Shown: positions 38,412-39,206 of the stretch, one piece after another
How the letters are laid out: every line of letters begins with the position of its first letter
Numbering within the stretch: the first letter of the stretch is position 1
Origin: Escherichia coli
GTDB lineage: Bacteria > Pseudomonadota > Gammaproteobacteria > Enterobacterales > Enterobacteriaceae
Assembly: GCF_030013595.1 (NCBI RefSeq)
Contig: NZ_CP122768.1
Length of the DNA: 64,000 nucleotides
Direction: 5' to 3' (one strand)
Notes under the pieces: model-generated
Databases searched by the model: none
What the model was told of the DNA's origin: nothing
What the model saw: only the letters and a program-made list of their open reading frames with translations
Translations under genes and position numbers: made by a program

Positions 38412-39047
38412 TCTTCTGAATCACCGGGCGACAAAATATAACTGAGTTACAAATAAGTACCAGTCGAATGAGTATTGTATTAAGAATTTTTGAGTATCGC
38501 TGATACAACCAGAAAGCAATGCTAGCGCAATATTATATGGCCAGCAATTGAGATTATTAGCAAAAGCATGTTAAGAATTAATCACCGAATTTATATATTA
38601 ATTATAGTAAGGCAATGAGCTATTTTTGATAGTAAAAATAAAACAAGTTGATTTGATATATTAAATGAAAAAATTAATCTTGATGACAGTCTGATTATTG
38701 GTGAAGTTTACAGGTCAGTTTTTTTCGCCAGCTGTTAAAGGAATAGAATCGTCGTATAAAAAAGGGTGTTATGGAGCGTGTAAAACAATATCTTCACCTT
38801 AATGGCGATACAGTTGGCTGAGAGCCAGCAGGGGGCAAATCACCTGCAAATAAACACGGCACATGCTGGCGCGCATATCGCGGATGCGTTCGAGGACAGA
38901 AGAACCGACAGGCGGATTCTTCAGCAGCTCATCGTCCATCACAAAACCTTTGACCAGGTATTTCTGAAGCCGATTGAATATTGAGCAGTAGAAAATATCT
39001 GGATTGACAGTATTACGAGGGGTTCGAGAACGTATGAAGAGGCATTT

Positions 39048-39071
39048 TGGCGGAAGATCACAGGAGTCGAA
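39048..39071 (-). repeat. 24-nt copy of the selC (tRNA-Sec) 3-prime end: island boundary direct repeat; the complete tRNA gene is not in the window
   Basis: TGGCGGAAGATCACAGGAGTCGAA equals the reverse complement of the selC 3-prime end (T-arm, acceptor stem, CCA) as I recall it, then diverges; island-type genes begin immediately to its right. Confidence 0.6.
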
Positions 39072-39206
39072 TATGAGTGTTAATGTTTTGATTTTAAATG
39101 ATTAACCCGTGTTGGATAAATGAGTAACCCCCATAAGAACCCCCAAATGACTTTGCGTAAGGGAATGAGGCTAAAATACACAATCGAATCAATTATTAGA
39201 GCTTTC

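Follow-up and report, generated by a model that had tools for sequence, protein, structure and literature searches.

The setC-side end of a selC genomic island in Escherichia coli coincides with a 24-nt repeat of the tRNA-Sec gene 3′ end

The tRNA-Sec gene selC is a classic integration hotspot. LEE, PAI I-536, SHI-2, LPA, the Tia-PAI of ETEC and SPI-3 of Salmonella also use selC as the tRNA target, and their cargo and integrases differ. In LEE-negative STEC, the insertions at selC terminate in a direct repeat of the tRNA gene, 24 bp long, and the pair of motifs TTTGGGGGTACTTTAGGGGGT and TTTGGGGGTTCTTATGGGGGT is found near the two ends of one of them, GIselC17584/1 (PMC6174562); SHI-2, LPA and CP4-int are mentioned in the same report. 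For EAEC 042, the account in PMC7058095, after Sheikh et al. 2006, gives the order as an intact selC, the selC-A island, a 21-bp repeat of the 3′ end, setC-yicL-nlpA and then the eip locus, or selC-B.

Here we describe a junction of this kind in a 64,000-nt stretch of E. coli DNA (contig NZ_CP122768.1), which is referred to as the window. The interval of interest, 38412-39206, coincides exactly with the intergenic region that separates setC from the gene of a DUF4942-domain protein, and it is arranged with its neighbors as follows.

37227-38411, minus strand: setC, sugar efflux transporter of 394 aa, the first backbone gene outside the island
38412-39047, minus strand: native selC-setC spacer, 636 bp and AT-rich (37.9% GC), original chromosomal DNA and not island
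39048-39071, minus strand: displaced 3′-terminal 24 nt of selC, an exact match to the K-12 selC 3′ end and very probably the core of attR
39072-39206, minus strand: island-side arm of the putative attR, 135 bp, 34.8% GC, from the core to the DUF4942 stop codon
39207-40049, minus strand: DUF4942-domain protein of 280 aa, the terminal gene of the island (Pfam PF13708, E = 1.2e-69, and PGAP)
39072-64000: portion of the island within the window, 24,929 bp, 47.0% GC

The plus-strand letters at 39048-39071 are tggcggaagatcacaggagtcgaa, and the minus strand reads TTCGACTCCTGTGATCTTCCGCCA, which is identical to the last 24 nt of K-12 selC (NC_000913, 3836222-3836316); the exact common suffix is 24 nt with no mismatches. 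With up to 3 mismatches allowed, the 24-mer matches the 64-kb window at this place only, and the same tolerance produced no match in any of 100 dinucleotide-preserving shuffles. A regex search that tolerated up to 6 mismatches revealed no further copy of TTCGACTCCTGTGATCTTCCGCCA in the window. Likewise, the second att repeat that had been proposed as a check was absent from the window, as neither the 24-mer at up to 6 mismatches nor its two 16-mer halves at up to 3 mismatches revealed even a degenerate one; a lone 16-mer match at 46165 (3 mismatches) was rejected as noise. No tRNA gene was found in the whole 64-kb window by ARAGORN, and no integrase is annotated by PGAP in the stretch of the E. 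coli 2009C-3133 island that is 100% identical to window 39072-64000. The original prediction, made from the letters alone, had reported both the minus-strand copy of the tRNA-Sec 3′ end and the absence of an intact selC and an integrase from the window, and both observations are confirmed by these searches.

The alignment of the reverse complement of 38380-39110 with K-12 selC-setC defines what lies on each side of the repeat. The two sequences are collinear from the first base of the repeat through the spacer and into setC, and upstream of the repeat no similarity to K-12 is found in the same alignment. The island-side arm at 39072-39206 is unrelated to K-12 and identical in 2009C-3133. In accordance with that, thousands of genomes match window 38950-39206 no further than 39071 (query base 122), and the matches end at this base in genomes where tRNA-Sec is annotated at that place. 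The island boundary is therefore fixed to the nucleotide, at 39071/39072, and the DNA to the left, from 39047 as far as nlpA, is all ordinary backbone. Two further parts of the prediction, that the repeat marks the island edge and that island-type genes start just past it, hold in this analysis: the repeat is precisely where collinearity with K-12 ceases, and 135 bp farther on the first island gene, encoding the DUF4942 protein, starts. A boundary known at the nucleotide level is useful for annotation. Of the 5,426 complete E. coli genomes, 698 (about 13%) match across the whole junction with the island arm, and 682 contain at least 80% of window 36900-40100, from setC to DUF4942. The best match of the junction among complete genomes is 99.0%, and that of the left 25 kb of the window is 95%.

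The far end of the island was followed in relatives of the window's genome. All 24,929 bp of window 39072-64000 recur at 100% identity in E. coli 2009C-3133 (NZ_CP013025), and OkiPb01676 (NZ_AP042480) matches this stretch at 99.8%. These are the two closest complete genomes examined, and in both an integrase is reached after a further 34-42 kb of island from the point where the window ends. In 2009C-3133 it continues with a type I restriction-modification system, a Tn21 / class 1 integron / TEM-1 / aph region, tia and a phosphoethanolamine transferase gene, and it ends with a 396-aa tyrosine recombinase, WP_001218917.1, beside an intact tRNA-Sec gene that is followed by yicJ-yicI; the total length is approximately 67.1 kb. 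The same integrase adjoins an intact selC in OkiPb01676. There the distal 24-nt repeat is intact as well and lies beside a K-12-type spacer and setC, which is the same junction as in the window, and the two intact 24-nt cores are 59,212 bp apart. No third copy of the 24-mer was found at up to 3 mismatches in the 40 kb of OkiPb01676 searched on the selC-proximal side (locus L006), and no additional or degenerate repeat was found at up to 3 mismatches of the 24-mer in the relatives' locus L004. When the attL of the relatives was aligned with the junction of the window, 25 nt were identical, counting A39047 after CCA, and the arms were otherwise unrelated.

WP_001218917.1 matches the domains Arm-DNA-bind_3 (E = 2e-28), Phage_int_M (E = 1.5e-35) and Phage_integrase (E = 8.3e-28), and it also matches the NCBIfam integrase domain PRK09692 with E = 6.5e-94, a score below the curated cut-off of that model. 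Judged by these predicted domains, its architecture is that of a P4-like tyrosine integrase. The expectation that the island continues past position 64000 is thus borne out by 2009C-3133 and OkiPb01676, whose islands run on to this integrase beside an intact selC. The more specific expectation of selC and a P4-type integrase at the far end was verified in these two genomes, and for the genome of the window we infer from them that both would lie beyond 64000. The interiors of the island vary between relatives through IS and Tn21-type insertions, and for this reason the far end could have undergone rearrangement or deletion in the genome of the window.

Several other features of the relatives were observed. 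In 2009C-3133 (locus L003, 1294-2440, compared with window 37146-39071), approximately 1 kb of unrelated DNA, which encodes a 165-aa hypothetical protein, stands in place of setC and nearly all of the spacer, and the distal selC repeat is without 4 nt, reading TGGC----GATCACAGG. The junction of this strain has decayed, and the island is probably locked in place there. Iso00225 shows the same gene layout as 2009C-3133 by annotation, and 100%-identical islands were recorded at L003 (NZ_CP013025) and L005 2574-3730 (NZ_CP095137). Beyond the reach of the window, a truncated second tyrosine-recombinase gene is located near tia and an IS1 copy (L004 13896-14078 and L006 8614-8796), and no internal selC repeat accompanies it in either locus. 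The truncated gene indicates that the island is a mosaic of at least two integrative elements.

Two other readings of the 24-nt match were weighed against these data. A chance match to the selC 3′ end is ruled out by the shuffles, none of which reached the match even at 3 mismatches, and by the K-12 alignment, in which the repeat sits exactly at the K-12 distance from setC. Alternatively, the 24 nt could be the stump of a selC gene destroyed by a non-specific insertion or deletion, in which case there would be no intact selC and no recombination site. Such a stump would agree with the absence of an intact selC from the window, and the junction does decay, as in 2009C-3133 with its repeat lacking 4 nt and its setC replaced. 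However, a non-specific event is difficult to reconcile with a breakpoint at the same nucleotide in 698 genomes, with the agreement between the repeat and the published 24-bp direct repeat (PMC6174562), and with the intact selC and adjacent integrase kept in all the relatives examined, and we consider this reading very unlikely. With high confidence, we interpret 39048-39071 as the attR core of an island of approximately 60 kb integrated in the selC 3′ end.

The integration that would give rise to this attR can be outlined from the sequences. In the circular island, attP would duplicate the terminal 24-25 nt of selC, and a P4-like tyrosine integrase would recombine it with the chromosomal selC. 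At the integrase end (attL), selC would be left intact and would take its 3′ end from the island, and the original selC 3′ end, joined to the native 636-bp spacer and setC, would be pushed to the far end as attR. Because the 24-nt copy in the window would be the original chromosomal selC 3′ end, the K-12-type spacer follows it seamlessly. Every feature here agrees with the standard model for integrases that target tRNA genes.

Two further features of the island may take part in the recombination.

39127-39147, minus strand: tandem GGGGGT motif TTTGGGGGTTCTTATGGGGGT, 55 bp inside the island, the single match in the window (0 expected)
57435-57668, plus strand: AlpA-family small DNA-binding protein of 77 aa (Pfam PF05930 Phage_AlpA, E = 2.5e-10)

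A partner of the first motif, TTTGGGGGTACTTTAGGGGGT, is located approximately 110 bp from the selC end, by the integrase gene and in the same orientation (L004 and L006). The two GGGGGT motifs are candidate arm-type integrase binding sites: in the circular form they would flank the core, as arm-type sites do, and they would probably be bound by the N-terminal arm-binding domain of the integrase. The AlpA-family protein also matches the PHROGs category 'excisionase and transcriptional regulator' (E = 6.4e-10), which makes it a candidate excisionase, recombination directionality factor or regulator of the island, and it probably supplies the control of excision. Its gene is far from the integrase end.

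At 47.0% GC, the island portion at 39072-64000 differs in composition from the backbone. The rest of the cargo within the window is accessory and rich in mobile elements, with IS fragments, a toxin-antitoxin pair, and antirestriction, AlpA and mobI genes. A CP4-type accessory module comprises DUF957, DUF5983, the CbtA/YeeU toxin-antitoxin, DUF987, JAB/RadC-like, antirestriction, DUF932 and GTPase genes, and the further cargo consists of IS fragments, an H-NS-family gene, a restriction endonuclease gene, mobI and rhuM. The H-NS-family gene, which encodes a nucleoid protein of 146 aa, lies at 53327-53767 on the plus strand, between IS256 and IS21 fragments. A gene annotated as encoding the conjugative transfer protein MobI(A/C) (62635-63021, plus strand) adjoins a full-length RhuM-family gene (63079-64000, minus strand). 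In relatives, the next genes after mobI-rhuM belong to a type I restriction-modification system, and some strains also have a Tn21 / class 1 integron / TEM-1 / aph(3′)-Ia resistance region there. This layout of mobI and a resistance region is reminiscent of islands that plasmids mobilise. A search upstream of and near mobI gave no AcaCD-box-like motif; the window has one match, at 8227, which is no more than chance would give. At least 80% of the 25-kb island of the window is covered in 42 genomes, a minority.

It is possible, if rather unlikely, that the GGGGGT motifs are the arm sites of the selC integrase and, at the same time, that the island with its AlpA and MobI(A/C) genes may still be excised and mobilised by a conjugative plasmid. 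If so, a common selC island would be an active vehicle, of which the copy in some strains gained the Tn21 / class 1 integron / TEM-1 region.

On the other side of the repeat, the spacer required separate consideration, as the original prediction had taken the gap of about 640 bp to setC to be larger than that of K-12. The spacer is also 636 bp in K-12 MG1655, from the selC 3′ end at 3836316 to the setC start at 3836953, and the two are collinear with 95.45% identity and 2 single-base gaps. The enlarged spacer was therefore a false lead and is corrected here. setC of the window is 98.9% identical to that of K-12 and is annotated as setC in the matching genomes. A query of the intergenic region, consisting mostly of the spacer, was matched in 4,749 of the 5,426 complete E. 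coli genomes. No Rfam family was found in 38000-39600 at E ≤ 1, and the counts from a promoter and terminator scan of the spacer were no better than those from shuffled sequence.

The spacer contains one recognizable coding remnant.

38841-39032, minus strand: decayed internal fragment of a RhuM-family gene (Pfam PF13310 match; partial rhuM by PGAP)

The translation of 38841-39032 matches Pfam PF13310 Virulence_RhuM at model positions 50-98 of 252 (E = 2.5e-9), and BLASTP against the full-length RhuM of the island gave 65% identity (E = 1e-18) with an internal gap of 8 residues. PGAP calls a partial rhuM at this place in related genomes, and K-12 carries the annotated pseudogene yicT, which corresponds to about 38808-38939. 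Every genome inspected labels the gene either as partial or as a pseudogene. No NCBIfam match was obtained for the fragment, the full-length RhuM or the DUF4942 protein, for which Pfam gave matches instead, and a literature query on yicT and rhuM returned only unrelated 'rhuMAb' papers. The fragment is incomplete as a gene, being limited to that part of the model, interrupted by the gap and devoid of a start codon. By these sequence features, it is a relic and not a functional member of the family. rhuM was named in SPI-3 of Salmonella, which is inserted at selC.

The origin of this relic was considered in two ways. The prediction had suggested that the gap to setC is longer than in K-12 through leftovers of an earlier insertion in this strain, and a RhuM-family fragment is indeed present in the spacer. 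Nevertheless, K-12 MG1655 has a spacer of the same 636 bp at 95.45% identity with the same fragment as yicT, about 4,750 of the 5,426 genomes have the spacer, and no degenerate selC repeat is present in it or in the rest of the window at up to 6 mismatches. A strain-specific enlargement is ruled out by the K-12 alignment, and leftovers of this kind are extremely improbable. What stands of the suggestion is the remnant itself. As it is common to K-12 and most E. coli, the relic says nothing about the history of the window's strain. It is moderately likely that the fragment descends from a selC-linked island far older than the present one, carried by the E. coli ancestor, and that the rest of this older island, including its distal repeat, has been lost. 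Such an origin is plausible because RhuM-family genes are cargo of selC islands, as exemplified by the full-length copy in the island of the window, at 63079 to beyond 64000. It is also favored by the decayed state of the fragment, with model positions 50-98 of 252, the 8-residue gap and no start codon, by its position starting within approximately 15 bp of the selC 3′ end in the same orientation as selC, and by the faster divergence of the spacer than of setC (95.5% versus 98.9% identity), as expected of non-functional DNA. On the other hand, no flanking repeat or other gene of the older island survives, and the fragment could also have come by recombination with a passing island. A RhuM-family relic directly after selC, now yicT, hints that the site had already been used before E. 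coli diversified.

Comparison with the known selC systems places the window among them. The order of the window is the same as that given for EAEC 042 in PMC7058095, with selC-A followed by the backbone and eip, or selC-B, which the window shows from 16133 onwards; the repeat reported for 042 is 21 bp, versus 24 (25) nt in the window. The eip / selC-B locus known from EAEC 042 occupies 16133-34567 of the window and contains the following genes.

16133-27553, plus strand: iatC/eaeX, inverse autotransporter of 3,806 aa
27686-29302, minus strand: eilA
29505-30854, minus strand: IpaD-family tip protein
32041-33822, minus strand: YopB/SseC-family translocon protein
34070-34567, minus strand: SycD-type chaperone

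The best matches of this locus among complete genomes are only about 95% identical. Differences between strains at this locus have been ascribed mainly to variable numbers of Ig-like repeats in eaeX (PMC7058095).

GIselC17584/1 and the other LEE-negative STEC insertions at selC resemble the island of the window and its relatives in the 24-bp repeat and in the pair of TTTGGGGGTACTTTAGGGGGT and TTTGGGGGTTCTTATGGGGGT (PMC6174562). A CP4-type integrase, a phosphoethanolamine transferase gene and a type IV toxin-antitoxin system are further features of these insertions (PMC6174562) that recur in the relatives of the window's island. In contrast, their interior cargo is mosaic and different from that of the relatives of the window's island, which have tia, a type I restriction-modification system and mobI and, in some strains, the Tn21 / class 1 integron resistance region. 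The islands of 2009C-3133 and OkiPb01676 share with the window the same arm, the same GGGGGT motif and the same terminal DUF4942 gene. K-12 MG1655 represents the empty site (selC - yicT - setC) and shares with the window the 636-bp spacer, the RhuM relic and the selC 3′ end, but its selC is complete where the window has the island junction. The repeat, the motif pair and the layout of selC-island, repeat, setC-yicL-nlpA and eip have thus all been published already, and the junction in the window is an ordinary one, whose anatomy follows the described selC systems without departure.
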